From positions 544,001 through 608,000 of the forward strand of contig CAWHXD010000008.1 in assembly GCA_963833225.1 (NCBI GenBank): a DNA stretch of 64,000 nt. The letters run 5' to 3'. The translations under genes and the position numbers were made by a program. A model generated the notes under the pieces. That model searched no databases. It worked only from the letters and a program-made list of their open reading frames with translations, and was not told where the DNA came from. Origin of the DNA: an uncultured Chloroflexia bacterium. Lineage in GTDB: Bacteria; Chloroflexota; Limnocylindria; Limnocylindrales; CSP1-4. Shown one piece after another: positions 34,380 through 62,889 of this stretch. Within the stretch, counting starts at the first letter, position 1; each line of letters opens with the position of its first letter.

Positions 34380-35880
34380 CGTGACCCTCGCTCGTCTGGC
34401 ACAAATGCCGCCGCGACTATTCCCGGAAAACGGTCGGAGCCCTCCATGCTGTGCAGGAGGCGAATGATCGTCGTCGTCAGCCATGCCCTGCCCGCGAAGC
34501 TGATCCCTCGCTTGCCGCACCATTTGGCCCATCTCGGCGGCCGTGACGGAGTCAAATGCAGCAGGCTGCTGCTCCGGACTTTCAGCATGGTCGATTGCAA
34601 TCAGCGGAATTGGGATCGTCTCTTCGATGAGGCGCAGTGCGGCCGCTCGCTCCGCCTTGTTTGAGTCTGCCCTCAGGATCGCCGCAATGGCCGGATGATG
34701 CCTATTGATCCGATAGCGGATGCGGTTGGCCTTCTGTTCGCGGGTCCAAACGAAGACTGCTTCGCTGCCGATGCTCGAATCACGGGCGATGATCTTGCCT
34801 CGATGTCGGTAGACGTCGATGGCGCGAGCCCGGGTCTTCTGCGCTATCCGGCGCAGGGTGTCACGAATTGGGCCGGGCGGGTGGGCGGTCGCCTTCCGAA
34901 CATCGAGCTGCCACTGCTCATCCATGGCATTTGGGATCTCGATGCTAATGCGAGCCAGCTTGGCGTGTTCTTCCTTCTGGAAGCCGAGTCCGAGCCAACT
35001 GCCCGCAACGATGAGGCGACGGTTACGATGGACGTAGAATCCCTGTTGCGCGTTCCAGCCGTGCTCACCTGCAGCCCGGCGAAATTCGGCGTCCGACAGT
35101 CGTGTGTGATGGGGTAGCACGTAGGCCCTAACCGTAGCTTGGTGCCCTCGGTAGGTGATTGTCTCCTCGCCCACGACTGCGTTGCCACATGGCCGCCTAG
35201 GAACGGGTCCCAGCTCTCAATGGGGTGCCCATTGAGGTAGATCGCCAGCGCCGTCTTCCCGGCGAGGTAGCCGTGGAAGGTGGCCGCGAGGTGCGCTTCG
35301 AGTTGTTCCACCTGCAGGAGGAACCGACCGCGCGCCTTCGCATCGTCAGCAGCCGCATCGCCAACGACGCGGTCCATTCGACGCCAGAGGACGCCGGTGC
35401 CGGATTCTGCGCGCTCGACCGGAAGGAGCCCGCGGCTCCGATCATCGATCTGCCTAGGAGTCGCCACTCGCCGCACGCTGCGACGACGTCCAGGTCCCAT
35501 CGTCGCTCCGCAATAGTGCCATCGCGGTTGGAGCGGACCGTCAGCTCCCGCGCCTGCGAGAACGAGGCAGTCTTGAGCCCGAGCCGAAACCTCCGAGGTC
35601 ATCGCTTCGGCGGACATCGCGAGGACTCCGCGACCCGGCGCGCATCGCCTCCTTGAGGTCTGACTCGGTCATGCCCGTGCCGTCGTCGATAACAGAGATC
35701 CACGACTCCTGGACCTGCCCAGTGCGCGGTGATCCAGATGCTTCGAGCCTTCGCGCCGATACTGTTGTCGATCAGATCGGCAACTGCAGCCGGCAGGGTA
35801 TATCCGAACGCCCTGAGTGATTCGACGAGCGCTCCTGCTCGAGGCTCAGCGATTTCGAAGTCCCCGTCGCCTGGCTCCAT
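34376..35880 (-). CDS. MORC/MutL-type GHKL ATPase (HATPase_c_3, MzaB-like); several frameshifts
   Basis: SLRAFGYTLPAAVADLIDNSI, WDPF, WNAQQGFYVHRNRRLI, KLARISIE...WQLDVRKATA, YRINRHHP. Confidence 0.87.
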
Positions 35881-36037
35881 CAGAATGCCTCTCGCCGCGA
35901 AGGCGGCCGCCATGTACGTGTCGCTGCCCCGTCGGACCGTGATTGTGCCATCGGGCTGCGCCGATAGGCGCCGCCGGCAGGTGGCCTGACCCTCGGCACA
36001 GGCTCGTTGGTCGCGGCTGTCGGCAGCCGCGGCAAGC

Positions 36038-39000
36038 TCACACCCGCTCCGGACACATCGCCCGATAGTTGCACCAGCGGCAGACGGCGCCCGGGTTGGC
36101 CGTGAACTCGCCGGCGCGGATCGTCCTCACGCGGGCAAGGATCTCATCGCGCGCAACGTCCAGCTCCTCGTCGGTGCGGACGGTGGACTGGCGGGTGCCG
36201 AGCTCGGTGTAGTAGAGGGTCAGCTGCTCGGGCGTGCCGAGGCCCAGGGCGTCGCGGCAGGCGAGGGCGTAGATGGTGAGCTGCAGGTTCTCGTCGACGC
36301 CCTTCTGGCTCCGCGGGCTGCCGGTCTTGTAGTCGATGACCTCGATGCCGCCGGACGGGAGGCGGTCGATGCGGTCGATGCTGCCGTGGATCTTCACGGG
36401 CGCGCTGCCGTCATCGGGCTCCAGCACGAGATCGAATCGCTGCTCCTCCGATAGCGCCTCCCCTACCGACGCGAGCTCGCCGCTCCAGAAGTTGTCCAGG
36501 AGCCGGCCGACGCGTCGCCCAAAGGCCTGCTCCTCGGTCCGGTCGCCAAAGCCGGTGGACTGCCAGTTGGCGGCGAACAGCCGCTCGAGATCCTCGCGGG
36601 TGGGCGCGGGCTCGCCGCGGGCGATGCGCTCCCGCCGCTCGCTGGTGAAGGCCTCGAAGGCGGCATGGGCGGTCGATCCGAAAGTGAGGGGCGCCTGGGG
36701 ACGGGCGGGCTCGGGGATCCGGTAGATGTACTCGAGGGCGTAGGCGAGGCCGCATCGCTCGAACGCGTTGAGGGCGGAGTAGCTGAAGTGCCCGGGCACG
36801 GGCGCGACATCGAGCAGGCTCGAACCGGCGGCGGTGTCGAGGGCGAGGTGCCGGAAGGTGAGGGGGTCGAGGCCGGCGGCCCGCGCCTGGTCCGCGACGG
36901 CTGCGGCGCCGCGCCCGATCTCGGCGAGCTGGGCGGCGAACGCGTCGCGGGCGCCCTCGGCCTCGGGATCGGTGGCGACGGTGGCCTCCATCAGGCCCAC
37001 GAGCTCGGCGGCGCGGAGGCGGCTGGCGAGTCGCCGCTCGCGGGCGGTGGGCAGGGGCATGACGCGGCGAGCGGTGGTCAGCGCATCGGACACCCTGTCG
37101 GTGGTGCGCGCCGGGCTGTCGGGCGCGACGCCGCCGTTCGCCGGGCGGACCAACGGTTCGCCCCAGGGGACGTTTGGTTCGCCCGTGGGCCCATTCGTGG
37201 GCTGTGAGGTCGCGCCGGCAAACGAACCGGCCGGTGAGCGGGGCAGTTGTTCGTTCGAGCGGACGGTTGAGCCGGTGGGCGGATCGCCGGCCGAGGGCAG
37301 CCCGCCGGCCGAGGGCAGCCCGCCGGCCGAGGGCAGCCCGCCGGCCGGCGGCGGCTCGCCGGTCGAGGGCAGGGTGCCGGCAGTGGTGGGCAGCGCACCA
37401 GGCCCGGAGCCCGCGCTATCCGTGCGATCCACCACACGAAGCTCCTCCCCCGCCCCGTCCCGCAGCTCGCCCACGAACCGCGACGGCTCCTGCCCCTCGA
37501 CCCCGGCGGGCGAGGTCAGGATGAGCCGCTCCTGCGCCCGGGTCATCGCCACGTACAGGAGCCGCCGCTCCTCGTCGGTGTGGATGTCACCGGTGGGGAC
37601 GGCCTCGCGCAGCAGCTCCCGCGGGAACCAGCCGGCGCCCTGCTCGCGAATGGGCCACTCCCCTTCCAGCAGGTTGGGGACGATCACCACGGGGAACTCC
37701 AGGCCCTTGGCCTGGTAGAGGGTCATCAGCCGGACGCCGTCGACGTCCTCGGTCAGCTCCACGCTGGTCGGCAGCTCGCCCCCGGCGGCCTTGTAGGCGT
37801 CGAGGTAGTCCACGAAGTCCGCGAGGGTGCGGGCGGGATTGGCTGCCTGCCAGTCGGACGCGAAGCGCATGAAGCTGGCGATGTTGACGACGGAGCGCCG
37901 GGCCTCGAGGGTGGCGGCGGCGAGGAGGTCCAGGACGACGCCCGTCCGCTCCAGGTACCGCTCCAGGATGGTGTACGGACCCTCGCGCCAGGTGAGCGGG
38001 TTGAGCTCCTCGATGGCGCCCAGGAGCATCCGCAGCTTGGCCCGGAGCGTGAGCGGGACGGCGGCCAGCTGCCGCCACGGCTCGCGGGACTGGCCGGTGT
38101 CCTCGTCGATGACGTCTTCGTGCTCCTGGCCCTCCTCCACCATGCGCTGCGCCGCGTCGGCGAGGCGGCTGCGGTCGAAGCGGGCGTCGCGGGCGACCCG
38201 GAGGATCTCCAGGGCGTCCATCCGCCACGGCCCGGCGGTCATCATCCGGACGAGGGCGGCGTCGTCGTGGGGATCCGCGATGGCCCGCAGGCCCTGCTCC
38301 AGGTCCCGGATCTCGGGCGCCTCGAACAGCGACAGCCCGCCCACCACCGTGTACGGGATGTCCTCGGCCCGGAGCCGCTCGACGATGGCGTCGCGGTGCC
38401 TGTGCTTGCGGTAGAGGACGGCGATGTCGTTCCAGCGGCGGCCCGTGGCGGTCCCGTGGCCGTCGGCCGGACCCGCGTGCGCGCGGATCTCGTCCACGAT
38501 CGCGACGGCCTCGTCCTCGATCCCGGCGCAGACGTGGAGCTCCACCGCGATCCCCGCTTCCCGGTCCGTCCACAGCCGCTTGTCGGGCTCGAAGCGGGTG
38601 ACGTTGCGCTCGATGAGCCGGTTGGCGGCCTCGATGACATGGCCGGTGCTGCGGAAGTTGCGATCGATGCGGAGGCGGCGCGGCGGATCCGGCGGCGGCG
38701 AGCCTGGCGCGTGCGCGGGCGGCGCCGAGAACCGGGTCATGAGCTCCGCGAAGGCCGCGAACGACGCTCCCCGGAAGCGATAGATCGACTGGTCGTCGTC
38801 GCCCACCACCATCACGTTGTCGGGCCGGTCGGGCGTGCGGCCGAGGAGCTCGATCAGCTCGATCTGGGCGACGTTGGCGTCCTGGAACTCGTCAACGAGG
38901 ATGTAGCGGAACTGGCGCTGCCAGCGACGAAGGACGTTGGGCCGCGTCTTGAACAGCCGCGCGACCAGGGCGATCTGCTCGCCGAAGTCGAGCGCCCCGC

Positions 39001-39920
39001 GAGCGCCCAGCTCCTGCTCGTAGGCGCGGTAGACGCGGGCCAGCTCCTCGAGGCGCATGACCTCGAGGGCCGCGCCGTCCCGCTCGTAGTCCGCGGCGAG
39101 GGTGTCGATCCGGGCCTGGTCGTCTCGGCCGAACTGGTGGCGGCTGCGCGCATGACCGTCTCCACCCACGGTCCGCCTTGCCTCGCGGTCCGCGGCCTTC
39201 TCGACCATCCGCGGCTCCCAGTTGCGCTCCTCGCCCGCCGTCTCCGCGCGCTCGTTCGCCCGCAGGCCGGCATAGGCGCCGCGCACCGACCGCAGCGGGC
39301 GCGAGATTGCCCTGGGTTTCGAGCCGTTCGGGGGCGCCGCTGAAGGAGCCATACCGGCGCTCGTATTCCCGGCGCTCGGTCTCCACGAACGCGTCGAAGT
39401 CGTCCGGGTCCACCAGCTCGTCCTTGGCCCGGTTGATGAACTGGACGAACCCGGGGAACGACCAGTCGCTGTGGTAGCGGAGATCCAGGGCGTGGCGCAG
39501 GTCGCGCAGGAGCAGCAGCTGGCCCACGCCGTCGAGGACGTCCGGCCTGGCCGGCAGCCCTGCATCGCCGGCGCTCTCGGTGAGCACGTGCTGGCAGAAG
39601 CTGTGGAAGTTGCTGACCGTGATCCTCGCCCGGACCGCGGGGCCCACCGCCTCGTCCAGTCGCTCCTGGAGCTCCCGCGTGGCCTTGACGTTGTACGTCA
39701 GGACCAGGATCTGCTCGGGGACCAGCGGGCCCCCGAACGGATCGCCGTGGCGGGGCGTGGGCTCCGCCGCCAGGTTGCCGCCGGGGTCGCCCTTGGACTC
39801 CAGGAGCCAGCGCACCCGCTCCACGATGACGCGCGTCTTGCCCGTCCCGGCCCCCGCGATGACGACGATCGGGCCGTCCTCGGCCTCGACGATCGCGCGC
39901 TGCTCGGGGGTCAGGTCCAT
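36038..39920 (-). CDS. UvrD-like SF1 helicase fused to Fe-S PD-(D/E)XK nuclease (AdnB/AddA-like); frameshift near 39300
   Basis: AGAGTGKT, VDEFQD, VGDDDQSIY, NFRS, QAKGLEF, EERRLLYVAMTRA; GSIDRID...IDYKTG...QLTIY; Cys ligands ERC and CRWC...C. Confidence 0.9.
37151..37269. repeat. 119-bp TIR element, copy C (inverted), inside the helicase-nuclease linker
   Basis: Reverse complement begins caaccgtccgctcgaacgaac and ends gaaccgttg; same length as copies A and B. Confidence 0.72.
37285..37348. repeat. 18-bp in-frame tandem repeat (AGGLPS)x3
   Basis: cgccggccgagggcagcc x3. Confidence 0.85.
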
Positions 39921-39921
39921 C

Positions 39922-40443
39922 TCAGTAGCGGTAGAGCGAAGCGACAAACGGGACGCGGTTGAACAGCATCAGCCCGATCGGCAGCGTGATGATCAGGAGG
40001 CACAGGGCATACCCGATCGACATCACCACCGCGGACGCCCACCAGCCCACGAACACGAACCACAGCCCGCGCGCCCACCAGGGCGGCTGGTCGATGGTCG
40101 CCTCGGTGGTGAACGTGCGCCCGGAGGCGTCCGTCCAGGCGTAGACGTAGCTGGTGCGCGGCCGGAGCGTGAGGACCGTGGGAATGCGGTTGATCAGCCA
40201 GATCCCGAGCGGGAGCCCGATGATCGTGATCATCGAGAACCACGCGATACCGGCGACGAAACCCGTCAGCCACCAGCCCACGAAGAGGAAGTAGAGGGCA
40301 CGAACCAGCAGGCCCGGCCCACTCTTCCGCTCCGCGACCACCCTCACCCCGTGGGGCGCGGGCTGAGGGGTTGGCGGGGGCGCGTGCTGGGGCGTGGGTG
40401 GGGGTGCGTACGCGGGCGGCCGCGGCGGAAGCGGCTCGGTCAC
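39922..40443 (-). CDS. YccF-domain membrane protein
   Basis: Two repeats of RALY/WFxFVGWW...ITIIGLPLG. Confidence 0.85.
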   Translation of the reverse strand: MTEPLPPRPPAYAPPPTPQHAPPPTPQPAPHGVRVVAERKSGPGLLVRALYFLFVGWWLTGFVAGIAWFSMITIIGLPLGIWLINRIPTVLTLRPRTSYVYAWTDASGRTFTTEATIDQPPWWARGLWFVFVGWWASAVVMSIGYALCLLIITLPIGLMLFNRVPFVASLYRY

Positions 40444-42824: not shown

Positions 42825-43631
42825 ATGAGCTCCAACCCGACCCCCGCTCCGACCGCCACCTCCTCAACCTCCCAGGCGATGCGCTGGGCTCTGCTCGCCG
42901 GCGCGGGTGCGCTGCTGGTTGGCCTGGTCGCGGGCCCGGTCCTCGCCGGCGCCGTGGCCCCCCGCACCTACGCCCCCACGAACGGCGCCACGGACCAGCC
43001 GCCGGAGCACACGATCTCGGTCGCCGGCTCGGGCAAGGTCGTGGTCGTCCCCGACATCGCCACGGTGCGCCTCGGCGTCGTCATCGAGCGCAACACGGCC
43101 AAGGCGGCCCGCACCGCGGCCGCGGAGGCCATGACCAAGGTCGTCGCCGCGGTGAAGGCCCTGGGCATCGACGACAAGGACATCGCGACCGCCAACGTGT
43201 CGCTCCAGCCGGTCTACGACTATCCCAACAACCAGTCGCCCAAGATCCGCGGTTACCAGCTCCAGAACATGATCACGGTCACGGTCCGCGACCTCGACAA
43301 GCTGTCTGACGTCCTCGACAACGGCGTCCGGGCCGGCGCCACGTCGGTTGACGGCGTCAGCTTCGACGTCTCCGATCGCACCGCCAGCGAGGCGAAGGCC
43401 CGCGAGGCGGCCGTCGCCGATGCCAAGGCCAAGGCCGAGGCGCTCGCGTCCGGGCTGGGCGTCCGCATCGAGGGCGTGGCGTCCGTCTCCGAGCAGGTCT
43501 CGACGCCGGTCTGGTACGACCGCATGTACGCGGCCGGTGACATGGTGGCCGAGGCCGCACCGCAGACCCCGGTCATGCCGGGCACGACCGACGTCGTGAT
43601 CACGGTCCAGGTGACCTTCCTGATCCCGTAA
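42825..43631 (+). CDS. SIMPL domain (DUF541) secreted protein
   Basis: TISVAGSGKVVVVPDIA, SLQPVYDY, AREAAVADAKAKAEALA, PGTTDVVITVQVTF; N-terminal TM/signal segment. Confidence 0.92.
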   Translation: MSSNPTPAPTATSSTSQAMRWALLAGAGALLVGLVAGPVLAGAVAPRTYAPTNGATDQPPEHTISVAGSGKVVVVPDIATVRLGVVIERNTAKAARTAAAEAMTKVVAAVKALGIDDKDIATANVSLQPVYDYPNNQSPKIRGYQLQNMITVTVRDLDKLSDVLDNGVRAGATSVDGVSFDVSDRTASEAKAREAAVADAKAKAEALASGLGVRIEGVASVSEQVSTPVWYDRMYAAGDMVAEAAPQTPVMPGTTDVVITVQVTFLIP

Positions 43632-43669
43632 CCCGGAGCCGCTCGCGCGGCCCGTCACCCCACGAACGA

Positions 43670-43699
43670 CAACGCGCCGGGCACCCGCCCGGCGTGTTG
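43670..43699. terminator. Hairpin between convergent genes
   Basis: caacgcgccgggc-accc-gcccggcgtgttg. Confidence 0.6.
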
Positions 43700-43718
43700 C
43701 GATGAATCGCGCCCGCGT

Positions 43719-45108
43719 CTAGCGGTCCAGCGCCTGGGCGAGATCCGCGATCACGTCGTCCGGGTGCTCGCCGCCCACGGAGAGGCGGATCAGACCGGGG
43801 GCAAGCATGGCCACCGCGCGTCCCTCCTCGCCCTGCTGCTGGTGGGTGGAGATCGACGGGATCGTGGCGATGCTCTTCACCCGCCCGAGGTCCGTCCCCC
43901 GGAAGATCAGCCCGAAGCGGTCGTAGGCCCGCCGCGCGGCGGGGAGCCCGCCCCGGAGCGTGAACCCCAGCAGCGTCGAGTACCGGACGGCCTCCGCCCC
44001 GTCCGCGTCCCCGTCGGCAAGCTGGAAGTCCCGGGCGGCGATCTCGTGGCCCGGGTGGGATTCCAGGCCTGGATACGAGACGCTCTCCACGGCCGGGTTC
44101 GCCTCGAGGAACCGCGCCACCCGCATGGTGGTCCGGCTCCAGGCGTCCATCCGCGTCCGCAGCGTGCGCAGGTCGGAGAGCAGCAGAAGCGCGCTGAACG
44201 GCGACAGCGCCGGCCCCAGGTCCCGCGCCGGGAGCAGCTTGACGTGGGTCGCGAAGTCCTCGCGCAGCTCGTCCGGCCCAACGCGGGCGGGAATGTCGTG
44301 GCGGGCGATCACGGCGCCCGCGATCGCGAGCCCGCTCGACCCGATCGCCTTCGACAGCGACTGGATCACGATGTCCGCGCCGAGCGAGAGTGGCCGAAGG
44401 AGCGCCGGGGTCGCCACCGTCGAGTCCACGATCAGCGGCATTCCGTGGGCGTGGGCGAGGGCCGCGAGCGCGGGAATGTCCGAGATGGCGAGCGCCGGGT
44501 TCGAGGGCACCTCCGCGTACAGGAAGCGGGTGTTGTCGTCGATGGCGCGCGCGAACGCGTCGGTGTCGAGCGGGTCCGACGACCCAGCGGACCTCGATCC
44601 CCCGCTCCGCGGCGTACCGGTTGAACAGCATGAACGTGCCGCCGTAGCACCTCGCCGACGCAACCAGGTTGATCCCGGCGCCGGGCCGGGCCGGGTCGAT
44701 CGCGAGCAGCGCGTTGGTCGCGAGGTGGACGGCGGCCATCCCCGAGGCCGTGACCACCGCGGACGCCTCGAGATCCGTCCCGTAGGTCTCCAGCAGCGCC
44801 AGCGTCTCCTCGAGATAGTGGGTCGAGGGGTTGGCGATCCGCGTGTAGCCCCAGGCCGGGATGAGGTAGGCAAGCGCCGCCTCGAGATGGTCCGAGTCCT
44901 CGAAGTGCTGGGCGGGCGACAGGTAGGCAGGCTCGATCAGGCTGCCCTGGTTGGCCATCGCGGCGGCGTGGTCGTACATGCCGTGGACGGCGATGGTGTC
45001 GAACCGACGGGACCGGGCGCGACGGCGCCGCTCCACCTCAGCTGCCGTGTCCTCACGGCCGCGTTGGATCCACGCCTCGAGGCCGGGCGACGGGGTGGTG
45101 GCGGTCAT
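43719..45108 (-). CDS. Cys/Met-metabolism PLP enzyme (O-acylhomoserine sulfhydrylase / MetZ-like); frameshift near 44580
   Basis: YTRIANPS, ASGMAA, CYGGT, EVPSNP, VDSTVATP, SLSK (PLP lysine), YPGL, IRLSVGGE. Confidence 0.88.
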
Positions 45109-45840: not shown

Positions 45841-46809
45841 GTGACCGCATCGCCCGATCAGACCGGCCCGACCGCATCGGCCGTCCACAGCCGCACGGCC
45901 GCGCTCGTCCTCCTGGTGCTGCTGGCCCTCGTCTGGGGCGTGCACTGGGTCGTCGTGAAGCAGGGGCTCCACTACCTGCCGCCCCTCACCTACGGCGCCC
46001 TGCGCATGCTCGGCGGCCTGCTCACGATGGTGGCGATCCTCGGGGTCCAGCGGCGGATCAAGCGGCCGCCACGCCACGACCTGCCGATCATCGCGTCCGT
46101 GTCCCTGCTCCAGATCGCGGCCGGCGTCCTGATCATGAACTTCGCCCTCCAGGCCGTGCCGGCCGGGCGCTCATCCGTCCTGCTCTACGCCATGCCGCTG
46201 TGGGTGGCCCTCCTGCTGTGGGCGTTCTTCCGCACGCCCCCTCGCCGCAACGAGGCGGTGGGCCTCGTCCTGGGCCTGGGCGGGATCCTCATCCTGGTCA
46301 ACCCGACGGTCATCGACTGGGGCGTGCCGCTCGAGCTCGCCGGCACCCTGGCGCTGGTCGTGAACGGGATCCTGTGGGCAGCCGTGACGATCCACATCCG
46401 GCGCCACACCTGGATGTCCTCGCCGCTCGACCTGCAGCCGTGGATGCTGCTCACCGCGTCTGTGCCGGTCGTCCTGGCCGCGCTCCTCCTGGAGCAGGGG
46501 CGGGAGATCCGGTGGGAGCTGCCGGCGATCCTCGCGCTGCTCTACAGCGGTCCGCTCGCGACCGCGTTCGCCAACTGGGCGAGCCAGTCGATCACCCGCT
46601 CGCTCGGCCCGCTCGCGTCCGCGATCGGCTTCCTCGCCACGCCGGTGGTCGGTCTGGTGAGCGGCGCCGTCCTGCTGGGCGAGTCGCTGGGGCTCCTCGA
46701 CCTTGCCGGGTTTGCACTGGTGCTGGGGGGCATCGCGGTCACGTCGCTGATCCCCGCGGCGCGGGTGCAGCCACCGGCCGTCGCGGAGGCCACGGCGGCG
46801 TCTCGCTAG
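45841..46809 (+). CDS. DMT/EamA family transporter
   Basis: LVWGVHW, ALRMLGG, ten TM segments, PVVGLVSGAVLLGE. Confidence 0.92.
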   Translation: MTASPDQTGPTASAVHSRTAALVLLVLLALVWGVHWVVVKQGLHYLPPLTYGALRMLGGLLTMVAILGVQRRIKRPPRHDLPIIASVSLLQIAAGVLIMNFALQAVPAGRSSVLLYAMPLWVALLLWAFFRTPPRRNEAVGLVLGLGGILILVNPTVIDWGVPLELAGTLALVVNGILWAAVTIHIRRHTWMSSPLDLQPWMLLTASVPVVLAALLLEQGREIRWELPAILALLYSGPLATAFANWASQSITRSLGPLASAIGFLATPVVGLVSGAVLLGESLGLLDLAGFALVLGGIAVTSLIPAARVQPPAVAEATAASR

Positions 46810-46825
46810 GAACGTCGCGCGGCGT

Positions 46826-48108
46826 CTACGCTCGCGTCATCCGCTCCGCGATGGCGCACCACTCCCACAGGCGCTGTGGGTCGGCCCGGCAGGTGCTGAT
46901 GTCCTTGAGCGTGAACTCGACCGGGCAGCCGTTGGCGCGCGTGGCCTCGAGGACCTCGCGGAAGTCCTTCTCCGCGATCTCCGGGACCCAGGTGTCCATG
47001 GCCACCATCGAGGGGTTGGGCTTGCGGCTGAACACGAACTCGGACCCGATGGCCTCGGCGCCTCTGCCGATCTTCGCCCATGGGCTCATGGAGATCTTCC
47101 GGACGTTGGGGATCTTGCGGACCGAGTCGATCCGGTTGTGGAGCGGGTCACAGCAGCCGAAGTAGCCGAGCCCGAACCGGTCGAACCAGCGGGCGTAGTA
47201 GGGCGGGACGAACTCGTCGAAGGTGGCGTCCCCCACCGACACGAACAGCTGGCTCCGCCCGACCGTCCAGGTATCGATCGCCCGCGGCTTCGCCGGGTCG
47301 AAGCCGGGTCCTGGGAAGCTCCGTGGTCTGGGCCCCGGTGCAGTGGATCCGGTCGTTGCCATAGCCGATGAGCCCCTTCGCCTCGAGGATGTCCAGCTCG
47401 GCAAGCCGGACCTCCGTGAGGCGGTCGGCGATCGCGTGGAGGTGCTCTGGGCGATCCATGAAGTCGAGCAGGATGGGCTCGGTGCCGCGGAACTGCTCGA
47501 TGTCGTCCCAGAGCGGGAACGCGAGCTCGTCGCCGTCGTAGCCCGTGAGCCCCTGCATCCGGACCTCGAGCAGGCCGTCGAGGCACTCGTGGGCCCAGGC
47601 CTCGCGCTCGGCGGTCCCTTCGACATCGAGGCTGGGTTCCAGGACGCGGAGCTTGTCGATGTCCTCGGGGTTCGCCAGCTGGTCCTCGTAGTGGTGGCTC
47701 TGGATCTCGCCGCCCTGGTCGATGGTGTCCTGCGTGATCCGGATCCCCCACCCCGGGCGGTCGATCACCTTCTTGATGTCGAGGTACGGCTCCACGACCA
47801 TGTCCACCCGCAGGTGGTTCCAGCGGTACAGCTCCTGGCGGAGGCGCGTCTCCAGGTCCCGGGTGAAGGGGTGGGTGCGACGCGACGCGCAGCTCGTCGG
47901 CACCCGGGACGTTGCCCGTCAGCTCGTGCCACGGGATCTCGTCGATCATCGCCATGGGCCGCTCGGGGTGGAGGTCGTTGAGCGCCTGCCACTCGCGGAT
48001 CCGCTCCGCCTGCACGGGCAGCGCGGCGAGCTCGGCGACCTTGGCGGCGAGCTCGCGGACGACGGCGACGTCCGCAGCCGGGAGGCCGGTGCTGGTCTGG
48101 GTGGTCAT
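46826..48108 (-). CDS. URO-D/MtaA-CmuA superfamily TIM-barrel protein, putative corrinoid methyltransferase; two frameshifts (near 47880 and 47315)
   Basis: FRGTEPILLDFMDRPE, SQLFVSV...FDEFVPPYY, YFGCCDPLH, ISMSPW, SRKPNP; lies directly downstream of the corrinoid protein gene. Confidence 0.75.
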
Positions 48109-48126
48109 CGGTCCGATCCCCGTTTC

Positions 48127-48754
48127 CTAGGAGGCCAGCAGGCCGCGGGCGAGGTCAACCGCGGACCCGGCATCGGGGGCGTAGCCGTCGGCGCCGATCT
48201 GGTCGGCGAACTCGGGGGTCACCGGAGCCCCGCCGATGACGACCCGGGTGGCCAGGTTCGCGGCCTTCACGGCCTCGACCACCGCCGCGCATGTTGGGCA
48301 TCGTCGTGGTCAGCAGGGCGGAGACGCCGATCAGGTGCGCGTCGTGCTCCTGCGCTGCCTCGACGAACTTCGCGGGCGGGACATTGACGCCGAGGTCGAA
48401 GACCTCGATCCCGCCGCCCTTCCACATCATGCCCACCAGGTTCTTGCCGATGTCGTGGAGGTCGCCCTCGACCGTGCCCACGACGGCGCGGAACTCGGGC
48501 TTGACCCCGGCCGCGAGCAGGACGGGCTCGAGGATCTGGGTGCCGGCCTTCATCGCCCGCGCCGCGATCAGCATCTCGGGCACGAACAGCTCGCCCTCCT
48601 GGAACTTGCGGCCCACCACGTCCATGGCGCTGGTCATCGCGTCGAGGATCGTGGTGGGGTCGATCCCCTCGTCGACGGCCGCCTGCGTGTGCTCGGCGGC
48701 GGCGGTCCGGTTGCCCGCCTCGACGGCGGCGGTGAGGGCGGCGAGGTCGGCCAT
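48127..48754 (-). CDS. Corrinoid (B12-binding) methyl-carrier protein; frameshift near 48288
   Basis: Cap motif MDVVGRKF...FVPEMLIAARAM; GDLHDIGKNLV (DxHxxG), SALLTTTM, GGAPVT...IGADGY. Confidence 0.93.
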
Positions 48755-48804
48755 GGGTGCGTCTCCTGCTCCTGGGTGGGGGCACGACGGTCCTCGGGCC
48801 GTCC

Positions 48805-48818
48805 TGTAATCGATTGCA
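48805..48818. promoter_or_regulatory. LacI-type operator upstream of the corrinoid operon
   Basis: TGTAATCGATTGCA. Confidence 0.75.
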
Positions 48819-48858
48819 TACGCTAGCGGACTGCGGGTCCGACGTCAATCCCCGTGGG

Positions 48859-49094
48859 CGTTGACTCCCAGACCACGAACTCGCCGCGCCGGGGGGCGAC
48901 TCCACCGTCAGTCCTCGGGGCGCTGCCTCGCAGTCCACGAAATCGCCGCGCCAACGGGCCTGGGGGCGTAGACGTAGCGCCACGGGCATCACCGCGTGGT
49001 GTTGCGCGGCCTTTGATGGCTGTGGGGCAACGAGATCGCCGTGTGCGGGTCTGCTGAGGCACCAATGCCCGATTTCGTGGTCTGGCAGTCAACG
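48859..49094. repeat. 236-bp element with 25-bp terminal inverted repeats
   Basis: cgttgactcccagaccacgaactcg versus reverse complement of cgatttcgtggtctggcagtcaacg (23/25); internal degenerate copy at 48921. Confidence 0.72.
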
Positions 49095-49156
49095 GCGACC
49101 GCGCGCGATGGGGAGGGGCGAAGGGCGACCGCGCGCGATGGGGAGGGGCGAAGGGC
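49094..49156. repeat. 30-bp tandem duplication
   Basis: ggcgaccgcgcgcgatggggaggggcgaag x2. Confidence 0.85.
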
Positions 49157-49174
49157 CGACGAGCCAACACGCCC

Positions 49175-50044
49175 CTACCCCGCCAGGTGGCTCCAGCCTG
49201 CGGTGCGGCGCTGGATCTCGGCGAGGTTGTGGAGGCTGGACTCCCGGGCACGCTCCTCCCAGGCGAACACGCACACGGTCATGATCCCATCGAACCGCAA
49301 CTCGCCGAGCGTCTCGAAGAACGTGTCCCAGGGAACCTCGCCCTGCCCGATGTCGAGATGCTGGTGGACCCGGACCGCGTTGCCGGGCGGGTTGGTGATG
49401 TACCGCAGCCCCGACGAGGCGCGGTGGTCAAAGCCGTCGGCGACGTGGAGCTGGGTCAGCAGCGGACCCGCGTGGCGCATGATCTCGGCCATGTTGCCGC
49501 CCTGGTGGAACGTGTGGGGCGCGCAGTAGAGGAACGACACGTTGGGTGAGTTGATGCCGCGGATCATGTCCACGGCGGCGATGCCGTCCTCGATGAAGTC
49601 GTCGGGGTGCGGCTCCAGCGCGAGGTGCATCCCGGCCCGCTCGAACACGGGCAGCAGCTCCTCGAGCGACTTCCAGAACTGCGCCTCGGAGATGGACGGG
49701 TTCTCGGGCCGGCCGTTGAACTCCGAGTTCATCACCGTGGCCCCCAGCTCCCCGGCGATCTCGATCGAGCGCTTCCAGTAGCGGACGGCGGCCTGGCGCT
49801 CGTCCTCGTCAGGCCCGGACCAGCGGAACAGCGGCAGCACGGAGCTGATCTGGACCCCGGCGGCGTCGAGCGCCCGGCGGAACGCCCGGATCCCGGCCGT
49901 GTCCACGCGCGGGTGCCGGAAGAACGGGATGCAGTCCTCGCGGGGCGACAGCTCGATGTATCGATAGCCCAGGTCGGCGACCAGCCCCGGCAGCTCCGCC
50001 AGTGGCGTCGTCCGGAACATGTACGGGTCGAGCGCGATCTTCAT
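49175..50044 (-). CDS. iolH: IolH-like sugar phosphate isomerase/epimerase
   Basis: MKIALDPYM, IELSPRED, NSEFNG, EPHPDDF, YCAPHTF, RYITNPPG...HQHLDIGQG. Confidence 0.85.
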   Translation of the reverse strand: MKIALDPYMFRTTPLAELPGLVADLGYRYIELSPREDCIPFFRHPRVDTAGIRAFRRALDAAGVQISSVLPLFRWSGPDEDERQAAVRYWKRSIEIAGELGATVMNSEFNGRPENPSISEAQFWKSLEELLPVFERAGMHLALEPHPDDFIEDGIAAVDMIRGINSPNVSFLYCAPHTFHQGGNMAEIMRHAGPLLTQLHVADGFDHRASSGLRYITNPPGNAVRVHQHLDIGQGEVPWDTFFETLGELRFDGIMTVCVFAWEERARESSLHNLAEIQRRTAGWSHLAG

Positions 50045-50116: not shown

Positions 50117-51127
50117 CTACCGGTAGATGGCGGGCTTCTCGACGTAGTCGATGGCCACCCGCTCGCCGCTCTTCACGGCCTGGACGCCGAACTCCGTGAC
50201 CCGCGTCGCCGCGTAGCCGTCCCACGCGGACGGGCCCACGATCTCGCCCTTCTGCAGACCGGTGATCCAGGCCTGGAGCTCGGCGGTGTAGGCAGGACCG
50301 AACCGGACGCGCCAGTCGGGCGGGACCACGTCCACGTCCTGGCCATTGGCGATCGTGCTGGCGACGACCGGGTTGACCAGCGATGCCACGCCAAGCTCGC
50401 CAACGAGCTCGCACCGCACGTCGTAGCCGTACTGGCAGTTGGCGAAGAACTCCGACGTGGACAGCACGCCCGACTCCATCCCGAACAACGCGAACTGCGG
50501 GTCCTGGAGGTGCGGGAAGGCCTTGCTGGTTCGCTTGGGCGGCGCGACCTGGACCGAGGTGATCTCCTCGCCCAGGAGCCACCGGGTGGTGTCGATCTCG
50601 TGGATCATCGAATCGGTCATGGTCATGAAGCTGGTGAACGACTCAGGCACGGTGGCGTTGCGGTGCACGTTGTGGAGGATCAGCGCCGCGCCGATGTCGC
50701 CGCCGTCGAGGGTCGCCTTGACCTGACGGTAGCCCGGGTCGTAACGGCGCATGAAGCCCACGATGACCAGCCGCTTGCCATGCTTGACCTCGGCCTCGAG
50801 GATCGCCTCGCACTCCGGGGTGGTGGGCGCCAGCGGCTTCTCGCACATCACCGGCTTGCCGGCGGCGATCGACGCCAGCGTGTACTCGGCGTGCGTCTCG
50901 CCGATCGAGCAGACCAGGACGGCATCGACGAGGTCGCTGTTGACGAGCGAGATGCCGTCGTCGAACACCTTGACGTCCGGCCCGAGGTCCGCGGCGACCT
51001 GCTCCGCACGGGGGCGATTGACGTCGGTGACGGCGCTCACCGTGGAGCCGTTGATGACGTTGACGAGCTTGTTCGCGTGGTCGGTGCCGATGAGACCGGT
51101 ACCGATGACGCCGACGCGGATGGCCAT
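50117..51127 (-). CDS. iolG: myo-inositol 2-dehydrogenase
   Basis: VGVIGTGLIG, CEKPLA, GFMRRYDPGY, HRNA, IHEID...WLL, YGYDVRCE, GPSAWDGY. Confidence 0.9.
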   Translation of the reverse strand: MAIRVGVIGTGLIGTDHANKLVNVINGSTVSAVTDVNRPRAEQVAADLGPDVKVFDDGISLVNSDLVDAVLVCSIGETHAEYTLASIAAGKPVMCEKPLAPTTPECEAILEAEVKHGKRLVIVGFMRRYDPGYRQVKATLDGGDIGAALILHNVHRNATVPESFTSFMTMTDSMIHEIDTTRWLLGEEITSVQVAPPKRTSKAFPHLQDPQFALFGMESGVLSTSEFFANCQYGYDVRCELVGELGVASLVNPVVASTIANGQDVDVVPPDWRVRFGPAYTAELQAWITGLQKGEIVGPSAWDGYAATRVTEFGVQAVKSGERVAIDYVEKPAIYR

Positions 51128-51177
51128 GGGGAACACCCTTCCTTCGCGGTGGTGCGGACGCTGCGGGATTGGCGGGA

Positions 51178-52107
51178 TCAGGCGAGCGGACGGCCGGCGC
51201 CGAGACCGCAGGTCTTGAAGTACTGCTGGGTGCGGATCGCGATCGGCAGCGGCCGGTCGAAGTCGCAGGGGTACATGTCCTGCTCGACGATGCAGTACAG
51301 GTCGCGGTCGAGCGCGGCGAGGGCGTCGATGAGCGAGGGCATGTCGGGCTCGCCCAGCGGCGGCTCCACCATGGCCCCGAGACGGACGGCCGGGGCGAAG
51401 CCCAGCTTCTCCTCCCGGACCCGGGCCTGGATCGCCGGGTCCACCTGCTTGAGGTGGACGTATCCGATCCGGTCCGGGTAGTCGGCGATGAGCTTGAGGT
51501 TGTCGGCGCCGCAGTACGCAACGTGCCCGGTGTCGAGACACAGCTGCACGGTCTCGGGGTCCGTGCCGTCGAGGAAGCGCTCGATCTCCGCCTGGGTCCC
51601 CACGTGGCTGTCGGCGTGGGTGTGGAACACGAGCACCGCGCCGTGGTTGTCGGTCACGTACTTGCCGAGCTCCGACATGCCCGAGTTGAGGCTGGCCCAC
51701 TCGTCATCGGTGAGCGTCGGGCTCGCGACCAGGTTGCCGTCGAAGTCCGTGAAGCCCTCGGGCAGGATCACCAGGTGCCGGGCGCCGTTGGGCCCGATGA
51801 CCGCCATCTCCGCGTCGCAGTCGGCCTTGGCCTTCTCGAGCGCCTCCCTGCCCTTGTGGAGGGCGACGAAGACCGTGCCCCCGGAGAGCGTCAGGCCCCG
51901 GCTCGCGTACGCCTCGCGGACGATGCCCGGGTCGGTGGGCAGGTAGCCGAACGGGCCAAGCTCGCTGTATCGGTAGCCCGCCTGCTGAGCCTCGTCGAGA
52001 TAGCGCTGCCACGGGGTCTGGAGCGGGTCGTCGCCGGGGTTCCAGACACCCCAGGAGTCCGGGGCCGTCCCCAGGTGGAGCTTCGGGTAGTCGACCTGCA
52101 GGTTCAC
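51178..52107 (-). CDS. iolE: myo-inosose-2 dehydratase-like TIM barrel
   Basis: GTAPDSWGVW, ELGPFGYLP, FHTHADSHV, LDTGH, VHLKQ, IVEQD. Confidence 0.75.
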   Translation of the reverse strand: MNLQVDYPKLHLGTAPDSWGVWNPGDDPLQTPWQRYLDEAQQAGYRYSELGPFGYLPTDPGIVREAYASRGLTLSGGTVFVALHKGREALEKAKADCDAEMAVIGPNGARHLVILPEGFTDFDGNLVASPTLTDDEWASLNSGMSELGKYVTDNHGAVLVFHTHADSHVGTQAEIERFLDGTDPETVQLCLDTGHVAYCGADNLKLIADYPDRIGYVHLKQVDPAIQARVREEKLGFAPAVRLGAMVEPPLGEPDMPSLIDALAALDRDLYCIVEQDMYPCDFDRPLPIAIRTQQYFKTCGLGAGRPLA

Positions 52108-52165
52108 GTCGCGGACTCCTTGGTGGGACGCGGGCGGGTGATGGGGCGGATGCTGATGCCCATAA

Positions 52166-52179
52166 TGTAATCGATTGCG
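52166..52179. promoter_or_regulatory. LacI-type operator upstream of iolE-iolG-iolH
   Basis: TGTAATCGATTGCG. Confidence 0.75.
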
Positions 52180-56434: not shown

Positions 56435-57366
56435 TCAGTGGTCGGTCCAGATCCTCCGTACCCGCTCCGCGACGCGCTCGGGCGTCAGGCCGTGCCGCTC
56501 GAGGAGCCACGCATTGGGGGCCGATTCCCCCACGTGTCCTCGATGCCGATGCGGATCATGGGCCGCGGCTCGTGCGTGACCAGGATCTCGGCCACGAGAC
56601 CACCGAGGCCGCCGGCCACCGTGTGCTCCTCCACCGTGACCACCATGGCCGCTTCGGCGGCGGCCGCGGCGATGGCCTCCTCGTCGCAGGGCTTGATCGA
56701 TGGCACGTGGAGGACGCCGGTGAAGAATCCTTCCGCGGCGAGCAGCTCCGCCGCCGCGAGCGTCCGGGCGGTCTGCTGCCCGGTGGACACGAGCAGCACA
56801 TCCCCGCCCTCGCGGAGCATGACCACGCGGCGCGGCTCGAACACGTAGTCCGTGCCGAACACATCCGGACCGGCCTCACGCCCCAGGCGCAGGTACACGG
56901 GACCTGGCGTCGCGGTGGCCCAGCGGGTCATCGCGGCGGTCTCGGCGGCGTCGACGGGCGCGAGCACGGTCATCCCCGGCATCGCCCGCATCACCGCGAG
57001 GTCGCTGACGTCCACGTGGGTCTTGCCCGAGAGGCCCGCCATCAGCCCGGTGTAGGCAGCGCCGATCTTGACGTTCGCGTGCGTCTGGGCCAGCGCCATC
57101 CGGACCTGGTCCAGCGCCCGGTTGGTGAAGAAGATCCCGAACGAGCTGAGCCAGGGCACGTAGCCGCAGAACGACAGCCCGGCCGCCGTCCCGACCATCC
57201 CCTGCTCCGCGATCCCCATCTGCAGGAACCGGTCCGGGTAGGCCGTGGCGAACGTGTCGGCCTTCGTGGACGTCGCGAGGTCCGCATCCATGACCAGCAG
57301 GTCCGGGTTGGTCGCGGCGAGCTCCACGAGGGTCTCGGCCCAGACGTCGCGTTGCGCCCTGCTCAC
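56435..57366 (-). CDS. Transketolase, C-terminal (pyrimidine-binding) subunit; 1-nt homopolymer frameshift near 56528
   Basis: DADLATST, QMGIAEQGM, GKTH, GPVYLRLGR, VEEH...GGLG; restoring one G gives WGESAPNAWLLERHGLTPE. Confidence 0.9.
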
Positions 57367-58268
57367 GGCACGCGGCCCTCCCCGTCCAGCTCGCGCCGGG
57401 CGGCCTCCGTCTCTTCGGCCGTGGCCGGGCGAGCGTGCCACTCGGAGCGGCCCTCGGTGAACGAGATGCCGCGGCCCTTGACCGTATGGGCGAGGATCGC
57501 CGTGGGCGTGTCCCCGGCGCTGGTGGACCGGGCATCCTCGCAGGCCGCGAGGATCTGGCCGAAATCGTGGCCGTCGATCTCGAGCACCCGCCAGCCGAAG
57601 GCCTCGAACGCCCCCCGGAGGTTGATGCCGGCCCATGGGTCGCGCCGGTTCCCGCGGTGCTCCTCGCCCTCCTCGAGCGGCCAGCCGTATTGCTGCATGC
57701 CGTTCCAGTCCACGATCGCCGTCAGGTTGCCGGCGCCATGGCGTGGGGCGACGTGCACGGTCTCCCAGACCTGGCCCTCCTGCGTCTCGCCGTCGCCGAG
57801 CATCGCGAACACCTGGCTCGGCAATCCGCGGCGGCGGGTGCCCATGGCCAGGCCCAGCGCGATCGAGATCCCCTGCCCCAGCGAGCCCGTCGACGAGTCG
57901 AGCCCGGGCAGCTTGAGCATGTCCGGGTGACCCTGGAGCCGGCTGCCCTCTCCGTCGAACGTCAGCAGCTCGGCCTCGGGGAAGTAGCCGCGCATCGCCA
58001 TCACGGTGTACAGCGCGATGGCGCTGTGGCCCTTGGACAGGACAAACCGGTCGCGCTCCGGCCAGTCGGGGCGCGCCGGGTCGATCCGCATCACGCGGAA
58101 GTAGAGCGCCACCAGCAGGTCCATCGCGGACAGCGGGCCGCCCACGTGGCCCGCCCCGGAATGGGCGACGGTCTCGATGACATGGAGGCGCCCGCGTCGG
58201 GCAAGCGCCTCGAGCTCCGCGTGGGGTCCGGCGCCGGCAGGCGTGCCCGGGGACGCGAGGCCGGCCAT
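57363..58268 (-). CDS. Transketolase, N-terminal (TPP-binding) subunit
   Basis: GHVGGPLS, RDRFVLSKGH, LQGHP, STGSLGQG, GDGETQEGQVWE, DGHD, HTVKGRG. Confidence 0.93.
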   Translation of the reverse strand: MAGLASPGTPAGAGPHAELEALARRGRLHVIETVAHSGAGHVGGPLSAMDLLVALYFRVMRIDPARPDWPERDRFVLSKGHSAIALYTVMAMRGYFPEAELLTFDGEGSRLQGHPDMLKLPGLDSSTGSLGQGISIALGLAMGTRRRGLPSQVFAMLGDGETQEGQVWETVHVAPRHGAGNLTAIVDWNGMQQYGWPLEEGEEHRGNRRDPWAGINLRGAFEAFGWRVLEIDGHDFGQILAACEDARSTSAGDTPTAILAHTVKGRGISFTEGRSEWHARPATAEETEAARRELDGEGRVP

Positions 58269-59153
58269 CAGGCCGGGGCCAGGCGCCCGAGCAGCGCTTC
58301 GAGGTACTCCCGGTTGGCCCGCGCGACGTCCTTGGGATCGTCGGGCGTGGTGTCCTGCTCCAGGACGAACCAGCCGTCGTAGCCGCGGTGGAGCAGCGCG
58401 TCCACGACCTCCGGGATCTGGGCGATCCCCTCCCCGAGGGCGGGGAAGATCCAGGTCTTGAGCGCCTGGCCGAAGCTCCACTCCTCGGCGCGCGCGCGTG
58501 GCGAGCACGTCGCCGTTGACGTCCTTGAGGTGGATGTGCCGCACGCGATCCCCGTAGGTGCCGAGCATCTCGAGGCTGTTGCCGCCGCCATAGGCCAGGT
58601 GCCCGACATCGAGGCACCAGCCGACCCTGGCCGGGTCCGTCTCGTCGAGGAGACGGGCGGTCTCGGCGGGGGTCTCCACGTACGTGCCCACGTGGTTGTG
58701 GAAGACGACGCTCATGCCCAGCGGTGACAGGTTGTCGGCAAGATCGTGGAGCCCGCGCGCGAGGTTGCTCCACTGCTCGTCGGTCAGACCGGCGGCCTCG
58801 TTGACGTGGCCCGCCTCAGCCCGGCGGCGGTCGTCGCCACCTTCCGCGGCGATCAGGAGCCGGCCACCGGTGGCGTGGAGCCGGTGGGCGATCGCCATCG
58901 CCTTGGCCATCTCCGCGTCATGCCGGTCCGCGTCGCGGAAGCCCAGGCCGACGAACGCCCCGACCATCTCCAGGCCGCGCTTGTCCAGCTCGACCTTGAG
59001 CTCGGCCGGGTCCTCGGGCATGCCGGGGCCCCACTCGGTGGCGTCGTAGCCCGCCTCGACGAACTCGTCCATCATCTGCCCATAGGGCAGCCAGGCGCGG
59101 TACTCGGGAACGTCGGGGTTGTTCCAGTTGACGGGTGCGGTCGCGATTCTCAT
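58268..59153 (-). CDS. Second IolE-like TIM-barrel dehydratase/isomerase; frameshift near 58495
   Basis: IATAPVNWNN, AGYDATEWG, FHNHVGTYVET, LDVGH, IHLKD, GYDGWFVLEQD. Confidence 0.82.
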
Positions 59154-61703: not shown

Positions 61704-61717
61704 TGCAATCGATTACG
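61704..61717. promoter_or_regulatory. LacI-type operator upstream of the lacI-family gene
   Basis: TGCAATCGATTACG; TTGACG...TAGGCT promoter-like hexamers lie immediately upstream. Confidence 0.75.
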
Positions 61718-61854
61718 TGTGCCCGTGTCGTGCCCATCGCGCGGGTCGTTCATCGGGAGGACCTTGGGATGCTGCCAGCTCGGGTCGCCGCGGGCCTGCC
61801 AGCTCGGGTCGCCGCGGGCCTGCTCGCCCGCTCCGGCGCCCGCGGGGTCCAGGA

Positions 61855-62889
61855 ATGACCGAGCGCGCGAGCCCCGCCACGATCCGCAACGTCGCGGACC
61901 GGGCGGGGGTGTCGACGGCCACCGTCAGCAGGGTGCTCGCGGGGATCGGCCACCCCAAGCCCGATACCGCGGCTGCCGTGATGCGCGCCGTGAAGGACCT
62001 GGGCTACCGGCCCTCCGGGGTCGCCCGATCGCTGCGAATGAAGCGCACGCGGACGCTGGGCCTGATCATCACGGACATCGAGAACCCGTTCTTCCCGGAG
62101 CTCGTGGTCGCCGCGGACTCCGCGGCCCGCAGCCGGGACTACTCGATCATCTTGGGCAGCGCCGCCTACGACGAGCATCGGGCGATGCACTATCTCGACC
62201 TCATGGTCGACCGCCGGGTGGATGGCCTGATCATCGCGTCGAGCCAGCTCTCGGACCAGAGCTGGGAATGGCTGGAAGGGTCCCCGGTCCCGGTGGTGGT
62301 CGCCAACGCGGAGCCCAGCGGGCTCGGCGTGCCGGTCATCACCAGCGACAACGTGGGCGGAATGCGGCTGGCCGTTGAGCACCTCGTCGGCCTCGGCCAT
62401 CGCAAGCTGGCGTACATCCGCGGCTACGAGGGGTTCACGGCCGACGCGCCGCGGTTCGAGGGGTTCCGGGCGGCCTGCGCCGATGCCGGGCTCGCCGCCT
62501 CGGACCTTGTGGAGATCCGGGGCGACGGCCAGTTCGAGGGTGGCGAGCACGCGATGGCGGAGCTGCTCGCCCAGGGCTCCTCCATCACCGGGGTCATCTG
62601 TCACAACGACGTGACGGCAATCGGCGCGATGCGGGCGATCCGCACCGCGGGCCTGAGCATTCCGCGGGACATCAGCGTCGTGGGCTGCGACGACATCGCG
62701 GCGGCGTCATGGGTCACCCCGGCCCTCACCACCGTCGCCCAGCAGAAGGCGGAGATGGGGCGGCTGGCGGTTGAGCAGCTGGCGGCGGCCCTCGACGATC
62801 CCCTCCAGCCCGGCGCGGCGGAGACCGTCCGGATCCCGATGCTCCTTCGCGTGCGCGAGTCCAGCGGCCCCGCGCGGACGGACGGGTAG
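61855..62889 (+). CDS. LacI family transcriptional regulator
   Basis: ATIRNVADRAGVSTATVSRVL, LGYRPSGVARSL, NPFF, NDVTAIG, ISVVGCDD, PALTTV. Confidence 0.95.
   Translation: MTERASPATIRNVADRAGVSTATVSRVLAGIGHPKPDTAAAVMRAVKDLGYRPSGVARSLRMKRTRTLGLIITDIENPFFPELVVAADSAARSRDYSIILGSAAYDEHRAMHYLDLMVDRRVDGLIIASSQLSDQSWEWLEGSPVPVVVANAEPSGLGVPVITSDNVGGMRLAVEHLVGLGHRKLAYIRGYEGFTADAPRFEGFRAACADAGLAASDLVEIRGDGQFEGGEHAMAELLAQGSSITGVICHNDVTAIGAMRAIRTAGLSIPRDISVVGCDDIAAASWVTPALTTVAQQKAEMGRLAVEQLAAALDDPLQPGAAETVRIPMLLRVRESSGPARTDG

Follow-up and report, generated by a model that had tools for sequence, protein, structure and literature searches.

The locus described here raises the question of why a cluster of inositol catabolic genes should include, behind an operator of the same type, two genes that resemble parts of a cobalamin-dependent methyl transfer system. 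The window, a stretch of 64,000 nucleotides with a G+C content of 70% from contig CAWHXD010000008.1 of an uncultured Chloroflexota bacterium (assembly GCA_963833225.1), encodes a corrinoid protein, here called CoP, followed by a protein of an unnamed family, here called X. Methyl-inositols, pinitol among them, rank as major soluble carbon compounds in legumes, pines and many plants under stress, and we know of no bacterial enzyme for removing their methyl group. The initial annotation of the window proposed that the pair does so through B12 before the product enters the Iol pathway. The position of CoP and X under iol repressor sites, taken with a B12 methyl-transfer fold, leads us to propose likewise that they probably strip methyl groups from plant methyl-inositols. 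In its full form the proposal makes X the substrate-side methyltransferase (MT-I) and CoP the methyl carrier of a corrinoid-dependent O-demethylase that feeds the inositol pathway, and to that full form we give an even chance. Fold, synteny, operator, operons that include a second methyltransferase (MT-II), and partner genes all speak for it, while the cyclitol as substrate is proposed from neighboring genes alone, a point that weighs against it.

Every element of the arrangement that the initial annotation had described, a corrinoid protein gene and a second gene downstream of iolE-iolG-iolH, is present at the coordinates collected in Table 1. The two-gene unit is present as claimed; overlooked were three frameshifts, one in CoP and two in X. 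The first 165 codons of CoP match the Pfam domain B12-binding_2 (9.5e-19) and positions 2-69 of B12-binding (1.4e-18), both above cut-offs, and its second frame continues the latter match over positions 65-120. NCBIfam matches are to TIGR02370 and to the MtgC, MtbC and MtaC models, all of them methyltransferase-cognate corrinoid proteins, with a score (133 bits, where the cut-off is 215) lowered by the split of the gene at the frameshift. Intact orthologs of CoP are 207-209 aa long, and the sequences GDLHDIGKN, SALLTTT and GGAP are invariant across 17 aligned relatives. CoP has the helical cap and Rossmann domain of a methyltransferase-cognate corrinoid protein, with its DxHxxG, SxL and GG motifs, so the DxHxxG corrinoid protein of the initial annotation is borne out by domains and motifs alike.

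Read across its three frames, X is 87-90% identical over its full length to the homolog P0003 (426 aa) and contains the motif FGCCDPLH. Its three pieces have no Pfam match even at E<=10 and no NCBIfam match, and a profile built from 35 homologs finds no match among PDB sequences at E<=10. A word-indexed search returned 149 homologous proteins at E<=0.001; among the best 120 of these, most are 410-445 aa long, every source-given name shown is 'hypothetical protein', and none has a precomputed Pfam domain. The family counts 2889 representatives (50% identity) at E<=0.001 and 735 at E<=1e-30. X falls short of the gathering score of the Pfam URO-D model, PF01208, and P0082, P0121, P0182 and P0213 have no match to that model; look-alike clusters in the Atlas are automatically named 'URO-D domain-containing', with PF01208 on 30% of the members in one cluster. 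Profile alignment by hhalign of X against eight PF01208 proteins encoded near family members gave a probability of 96.1% and an E-value of 3.5e-9 over X residues 200-395. The AF2 model of X (pLDDT 91.8, pTM 0.90) has Foldseek matches at E-values from 6e-7 to 1e-4, the best of them true uroporphyrinogen decarboxylases. By fold and profile homology X belongs to the URO-D/MtaA-fold (beta/alpha)8 barrel superfamily, so the barrel of the initial annotation stands, but as a separate unnamed family outside Pfam URO-D. Cys318-Cys319 are invariant in this family, Cys394, 75 residues downstream, is nearly so, and these residues are candidates for a zinc-type activation site. In the hhalign alignment the second Cys of the invariant GCC is placed on the Cys of the HxC motif, and the position of its His is occupied by Gly. 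One family member, P0155 (595 aa), has an N-terminal NPCBM carbohydrate-binding module, and at locus L031 (11182-13866) an NPCBM protein follows X.

Linkage of CoP to X was surveyed in 80 related loci, kept from 480 matches in species-representative genomes. CoP and X are encoded together, with 18 nt between the CoP stop codon (TAG, 48127-48129) and the ATG of X, and CoP is found upstream of X in 20 of the 80 loci (L001, L002, L004-L007, L009, L010, L012-L017, L019, L041, L042, L053, L057 and L079). It is directly upstream in all of these except L042, where it lies about 4 kb away and transposase and integrase genes separate the two (5346-10001). A B12-binding gene also stands beside all three X paralogs of the genome under study. 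Loci L008, L018 and L080 have a CoP fragment or a copy at the contig edge, and at L010 (10001-12621) X is tandemly duplicated after a single CoP. A quick IQ-TREE tree was built from 73 full-length X rows, leaving out the window copy and L012, L014, L020, L046, L050, L053, L063, L064, L079 and L082, for which there was no single stop-free match. CoP-linked rows make up 20 of the 23 members of one clade (SH-aLRT 98) and none of the 50 others. At 16 distant loci, a Pfam scan of 114 neighboring proteins (L065, L068 and one long frame of L078 dropped for size) found no B12-binding protein; PF01208 proteins occur at six of the 16, beside GH95, GH38, rhamnosidase, NPCBM, sulfatase and GDSL genes. Such neighbors, with the NPCBM fusion of P0155, connect the wider family to carbohydrates. 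Stand-alone-size B12-binding_2 frames are encoded elsewhere in all five genomes tested that have an X without CoP, so a carrier acting in trans is possible for such X proteins.

The further components expected of such a system are available in the genome, and in two relatives an MT-II stands in the operon itself. The initial annotation was correct that the window has neither MT-II nor activase, and its proposed genome search for partners is answered by contig C19, where three MttB homologs, a CoP, RACo/RamA, MTHFR, a Pterin_bind protein (MeTr-like), DUF1638 and a URO-D protein are encoded in one region. The L009 operon reads CoP-X-AraC-Pterin_bind-formate/nitrite transporter-GH63-like, and that of L041 reads CoP-X-Pterin_bind-DUF1638-GFO/IDH; because the pterin-binding MT-II is present in both, X is the only candidate there for the substrate-side methyltransferase. 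Of the paralogs, X2 is found as X2-CoP-URO-D beside L-fucose isomerase, FucU, rhamnose mutarotase and a LacI gene. The third paralog, X3 (G000:C19 194157-195435), is broken in several places and has an in-frame TGA, with a B12-binding fragment and an AP_endonuc_2 gene upstream. Pieces of cytochrome P450 and a Fer2/NAD-binding reductase lie beside CoP-X in L009 (5973-9274) and near X3 (L082, G000:C19 199290-201560), so that oxygen-dependent and corrinoid-dependent demethylase candidates may be paired.

One alternative is that X is no methyltransferase at all. It would instead convert an intermediate derived from inositol, as a decarboxylase, lyase or hydrolase of URO-D fold, and the B12 protein would have another role such as sensing or cofactor delivery. 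That its best fold matches are true uroporphyrinogen decarboxylases, that it is missing the HxC histidine, that 50 of the 73 family rows have no CoP nearby, and that a fusion to NPCBM exists would all suit such an enzyme. We consider it quite improbable, given that CoP is of the methyltransferase-cognate type by its B12-binding_2 cap and TIGR02370 match, that MT-II and DUF1638 accompany an X which is the sole possible MT-I in the L009 and L041 operons, and that five of five CoP-less genomes have B12-binding_2 frames elsewhere.

Membership of the CoP-X unit in the LacI-controlled iol regulon is indicated by the operator that it shares with the rest of the cluster. The palindrome TGTAATCGATTGCA, of LacI type, stands 51 nt upstream of the CoP start, and palindromes related to it occur in the window at 45809, 52166, 56082, 61242 and 61704; those near the LacI gene span 61704-61717 and 61242-61255. 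The operator pattern gives 13 strand-matches in the window where 1.33 are expected, a number reached in none of 100 shuffles. Across the whole 3.89-Mb genome YGYAATCGATTRCR occurs six times, always inside this iol cluster, and a seventh site, a 12-mer operator core, lies just outside the window before iolB, a transaldolase-like gene and iolA. The claim that CoP is preceded by the same operator as the other iol units is accordingly confirmed. In eight relatives (L001, L002, L004, L005, L006, L007, L013 and L079) there is a single operator, immediately 5' of iolE, so that iolE-iolG-iolH-like-CoP-X looks like one operon there; in L014 and L057 an operator stands directly before CoP, as in the window. 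A scan of 46700-49250 found no promoters or terminators, with a consensus that may not suit the phylum. The LacI-family repressor of the iol genes would on this evidence control CoP-X through the operator at 48805.

The gene order iolE-iolG-iolH-like-CoP-X is conserved in related Chloroflexota, with the IolH-like gene always directly upstream of CoP-X in the syntenic relatives. In 15 of the 22 loci with an X of 60% or higher identity to P0003, iolE and/or iolG occur at an identity of at least 60%. The other 58 loci have no iolE or iolG match at that level, their GFO/IolG-like matches being at most 34% identical. Of the close loci, L011 has just an iolD-like match, L017 is too short to judge, and five (L008, L009, L010, L016 and L057) have no iol gene within reach. 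In the tree, X proteins with iol linkage group as a separate subclade of 11 rows (SH-aLRT 99), outside which L015 falls. Homologs of X are thus enriched near iol and sugar genes, which is what the initial annotation had made its proposal depend on.

The same neighborhoods also suit a corrinoid methyltransferase pair whose donor is no cyclitol, and is rather methanol, some other small methyl ether, or a methylated sugar for which the ABC importer of the cluster would also serve. Linkage to iol genes would then reflect co-regulation or a shared habitat; the five close loci out of reach of any iol gene fit this, as do paralogs and relatives of X in other sugar contexts, namely the fucose/rhamnose cluster, the GH63-like hydrolase of L009 and the ribose-type ABC transporters of L010, L016 and L057. 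The separate iol-linked subclade, the iolE-led operon behind an iol operator in eight relatives, and the iol-type operator that CoP-X has for itself in the window lead us to regard a non-cyclitol donor as unlikely, if the most serious of the competing accounts of substrate and chemistry.

Were CoP and X a methyl-inositol demethylase, the reaction would run as follows. X would bind an O-methyl-inositol (D-pinitol, ononitol, sequoyitol, bornesitol or similar) and present its methyl ether to the Co(I) of CoP for attack on the methyl carbon, which would leave the methyl on cobalt as CH3-Co(III)-CoP and set chiro- or myo-inositol free. Activation of the ether oxygen would probably fall to a metal/acid site comprising Cys318-Cys319, Cys394 and His/Asp/Glu residues. 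The freed inositol would pass in turn through IolG, IolE, IolD, IolB and IolA, and the methyl group would go to tetrahydrofolate (THF) through a pterin-binding MT-II encoded elsewhere in the genome. Oxidized Co(II) would be re-reduced by a RamA/RACo activase, also encoded elsewhere, and the iol LacI-family repressor would hold expression through the 48805 operator. Corrinoid methyl transfers are reversible in principle, and a flow from methyl-THF through CoP to inositol, making an osmolyte, can be imagined; we judge this synthetic direction highly improbable, since the genes share a catabolic operon under repressor control with an importer, iolG, iolE, iolD, iolB and iolA.

Whether the pair works in this particular organism depends on how the three frameshifts are read. 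A plot of G+C at third codon positions (GC3) by frame, with a phase model, places frame changes near 48285, 47875 and 47300. DNA alignment with the two nearest loci, L012 and L014, shows one extra base in the window at each site, as judged against one or both of them. At the corrinoid site L014 likewise has one base too many, of a different letter, and further single-base indels occur elsewhere in L012 and in L014. Contigs of four other metagenomes, at a likeness of at least 88% and from relatives only, were also compared; the bases that they omit are entered in Table 1. Each omission is seen in single contigs at a depth of 2-3, which is weak alone, and their coincidence with all three predicted sites is not weak. 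Among sequencing runs the fraction of sampled words recovered is 0.14 at most, and none of those listed is an RNA run. For both genes the ratio of nonsynonymous to synonymous substitution rates (dN/dS), taken between the window copy and the intact orthologs of L001 and L006, is 0.17-0.25, and every piece of CoP-X keeps its GC3 periodicity undiminished. Since relatives and contigs from other metagenomes are without the extra bases, and dN/dS is about 0.2, we are fairly confident that the shifts are consensus errors of the assembly and that CoP and X are intact in the organism.

The reverse, that CoP-X is a decaying remnant with real frameshifts and is no longer functional in this organism, is distinctly unlikely. 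It would account for three frameshifts within 2 kb where the 3.6-kb rpoB is intact in a single frame, for the broken state of paralog X3 with its in-frame TGA, and for the presence of X in just six of 18 same-genus genomes. It sits poorly with breaks that are each a single extra base absent from relatives and from other metagenomes, and the different letter in L014 is more easily explained by a systematic consensus error than by descent. In the nearest assemblies (L012, L014, L020 and L079) CoP and X have indels of their own, and housekeeping-type genes of the window are split likewise: a UvrD/AddA-like helicase-nuclease (36041-39959; profile positions 1-164 and 165-268 in different frames) and a Cys/Met-metabolism PLP enzyme (43603-45108; profile positions 2-122 and 122-380 in different frames), along with a Dcm methylase. 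The low dN/dS and undiminished periodicity also argue against decay.

Several observations weigh against a methyl-inositol demethylase encoded by CoP-X. Cleavage by Co(I) is chemically harder for an alkyl than for an aryl methyl ether, with methanol activation by MtaB as its precedent. X matches no curated family and does not retain the canonical His of the HxC zinc motif known from MtaA-type enzymes. The iol-linked loci L003, L018 and L020 are without an intact adjacent CoP, and in L003 a GFO/IDH-type frame fills its place. With CoP absent from all 50 tree rows outside the linked clade and from the 16 distant loci, the family is not obligately paired with it in cis and may not be corrinoid-dependent throughout. 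The window encodes neither MT-II nor activase. As assembled, CoP and X are broken while rpoB is intact, so the errors are not uniform and real inactivation is possible. Lastly, as far as the consulted part of the study goes, bacteria that use D-pinitol by way of iolT/iolG/iolE apparently need no known demethylase (PMC9788770), so a B12 step would not be the only route.

The architecture of the CoP-X pair, an MT-I with its corrinoid protein, is ordinary, and the pair is real and conserved; what is new is the enzyme family, together with an apparent substrate class and context. Systems of comparable, three-component kind are Odm/Vdm of Acetobacterium dehalogenans, the O-demethylase of Desulfitobacterium hafniense, MtvABC of Moorella, and CdmBCA. 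CoP-X shares with these systems the component types and, as proposed from its genes, the attack of Co(I) on the methyl group. Their substrates are aryl methyl ethers or halomethanes, whereas CoP-X is found in a context of cyclitol and sugar catabolism in Chloroflexota, under a LacI operator; X also differs in having no match to PF01208 or to PDB sequences, and MT-II and activase are outside its operon. Three-component corrinoid O-demethylases combine an MT-I that is a UroD-fold TIM barrel with a corrinoid protein of MtaC type, some 210 aa long, and are served by a pterin-type MT-II and an ATP-dependent activase (PMC13222342).

A second comparison is with methanol metabolism, for CoP matches the MtaC models. 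MtaB/MtaC of Methanosarcina and Moorella achieve zinc-assisted Co(I) cleavage of an aliphatic C-O bond, that of methanol. MtaB is of a different barrel family from X, and MtaA moves methyl from the corrinoid to a thiol; X is without the HxC histidine of MtaA and would act on a bulky cyclitol.

Oxygen-dependent enzymes fill the same physiological role, removal of an O-methyl group before the normal sugar or cyclitol pathway. The oxygenase MocDEF has been proposed for the rhizopine 3-O-methyl-scyllo-inosamine; the portion consulted of PMC6668481 contains no mention of mocDEF rhizopine demethylation. Demethylation of 6-O-methyl-D-galactose is reported to be the work of a P450 (PMC6292453, PMC9400963). 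The P450 and MocDEF need O2 and release formaldehyde, while the route proposed for CoP-X would be independent of O2 and would keep the methyl on folate. Use of D-pinitol in Erwinia and Serratia requires iolT1, iolG and iolE; within the part of that study that was available, no demethylase is identified, vanB mutants grew normally, and no corrinoid component is reported (PMC9788770). Passage of a methyl-inositol through the Iol pathway, by iolT/iolG/iolE in Erwinia, Serratia and Bacillus subtilis, is what is proposed for CoP-X too. A literature search, to which most subscription journals were outside, found no paper on corrinoid or cobalamin demethylation of pinitol, inositol or methylated sugars. 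The mlp clusters of PMC10418091 belong to the metabolism of methyl-sulfur compounds and methyl-selenide.

Other genes of the window complete the picture of the cluster. Beyond iolE lie a ribose-type ABC importer, a split transketolase, iolD and the LacI gene (Pfam, NCBIfam). The best model of IolG is of the myo/D-chiro bifunctional type, with a score below its cut-off. Identification of the IolH-like protein as the inosose isomerase IolI was tried and finds no support in its sequence; its best PDB match is TM0416 (4e-9), and IolI 1i6n is not among the matches listed at E<=0.001. Transketolase is encoded as two genes (56494-59255), with an IolE-like AP_endonuc_2 domain joined to the N-terminal half, iolB and iolA have a transaldolase-like gene between them (G000:C8 613157-615335, equal to L084 7157-9335), and neither iolC nor iolJ was seen in the stretches of the iol cluster scanned; together these suggest that the cluster encodes a variant lower inositol pathway. 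The EamA/DMT transporter gene, convergent with X, adjoins X also in several relatives (L001, L004, L005, L019, L057, L012 and L014), and may bring in a methylated substrate or carry a product out. Between the IolH-like gene and CoP the spacer (48755-49177) measures about 420 nt, where most relatives have about 80-110 nt. Its repeats are an inverted one of 30 nt (48854-48883 and 49070-49099, 87% complementary), a direct one of 42 nt and a tandem 30-mer (49091-49150), and it may be a small inserted element. Farther off, the region 26310-36065 has about 63% G+C between flanks of 69-73% and is without GC3 periodicity. Its minus strand carries a defense-type set, a C5 cytosine methylase interrupted by a frameshift, an abortive-infection protein of the AIPR type and a DUF4420 PD-(D/E)XK protein, after whose gene come four frames without Pfam match.

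Table 1. Features of the CoP-X locus and its surroundings, in window coordinates.
Feature	Position	Strand	Evidence or remark
EamA/DMT transporter	45841..46809	+	convergent with X; own operator 45809-45822
Gene X, 427-codon URO-D/MtaA-fold barrel of unnamed family, proposed MT-I	46826..48108	-	two extra bases, near 47879 and 47309
Extra-base site in X	47309		one base omitted in contig of run X3
Extra-base site in X	47879		one base omitted in contigs of runs X2 and X3
CoP, corrinoid protein gene of MtaC/MtgC type, ~208 codons	48127..48754	-	Pfam, NCBIfam; one extra base near 48287
Extra-base site in CoP	48287		one base omitted in contig of run X1
LacI-type palindromic operator before CoP	48805..48818	.	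exact match
IolH-like sugar isomerase/epimerase (AP_endonuc_2)	49175..50044	-	Pfam, NCBIfam
Inositol dehydrogenase IolG	50117..51169	-	best model NF052679, 6e-112, 374 bits against cut-off 540
Inosose dehydratase IolE	51178..52161	-	TIGR04379, 8.9e-43, below cut-off; Pfam
Operator before iolE	52166..52179	.	motif search
LacI-family regulator, presumed regulon repressor	61717..62889	+	Pfam, NCBIfam

More broadly, X may found a large unnamed MT-I family that cleaves aliphatic methyl ethers of carbohydrates and cyclitols by way of protein-bound cobalamin, the clade of the window being a folate-feeding demethylase of methyl-inositols of the pinitol/ononitol type; we offer this tentatively, at somewhat less than an even chance. 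If true, B12 methyl-ether chemistry would reach beyond aromatic ethers and methanol into carbohydrates, and the proposal would give a function to several thousand "hypothetical" proteins of polysaccharide-degrading phyla. Plant cyclitol turnover would be tied to folate one-carbon metabolism and to the demand for cobalamin in soil, and soil Chloroflexota would have an oxygen-independent, methyl-conserving route to the use of abundant plant cyclitols.

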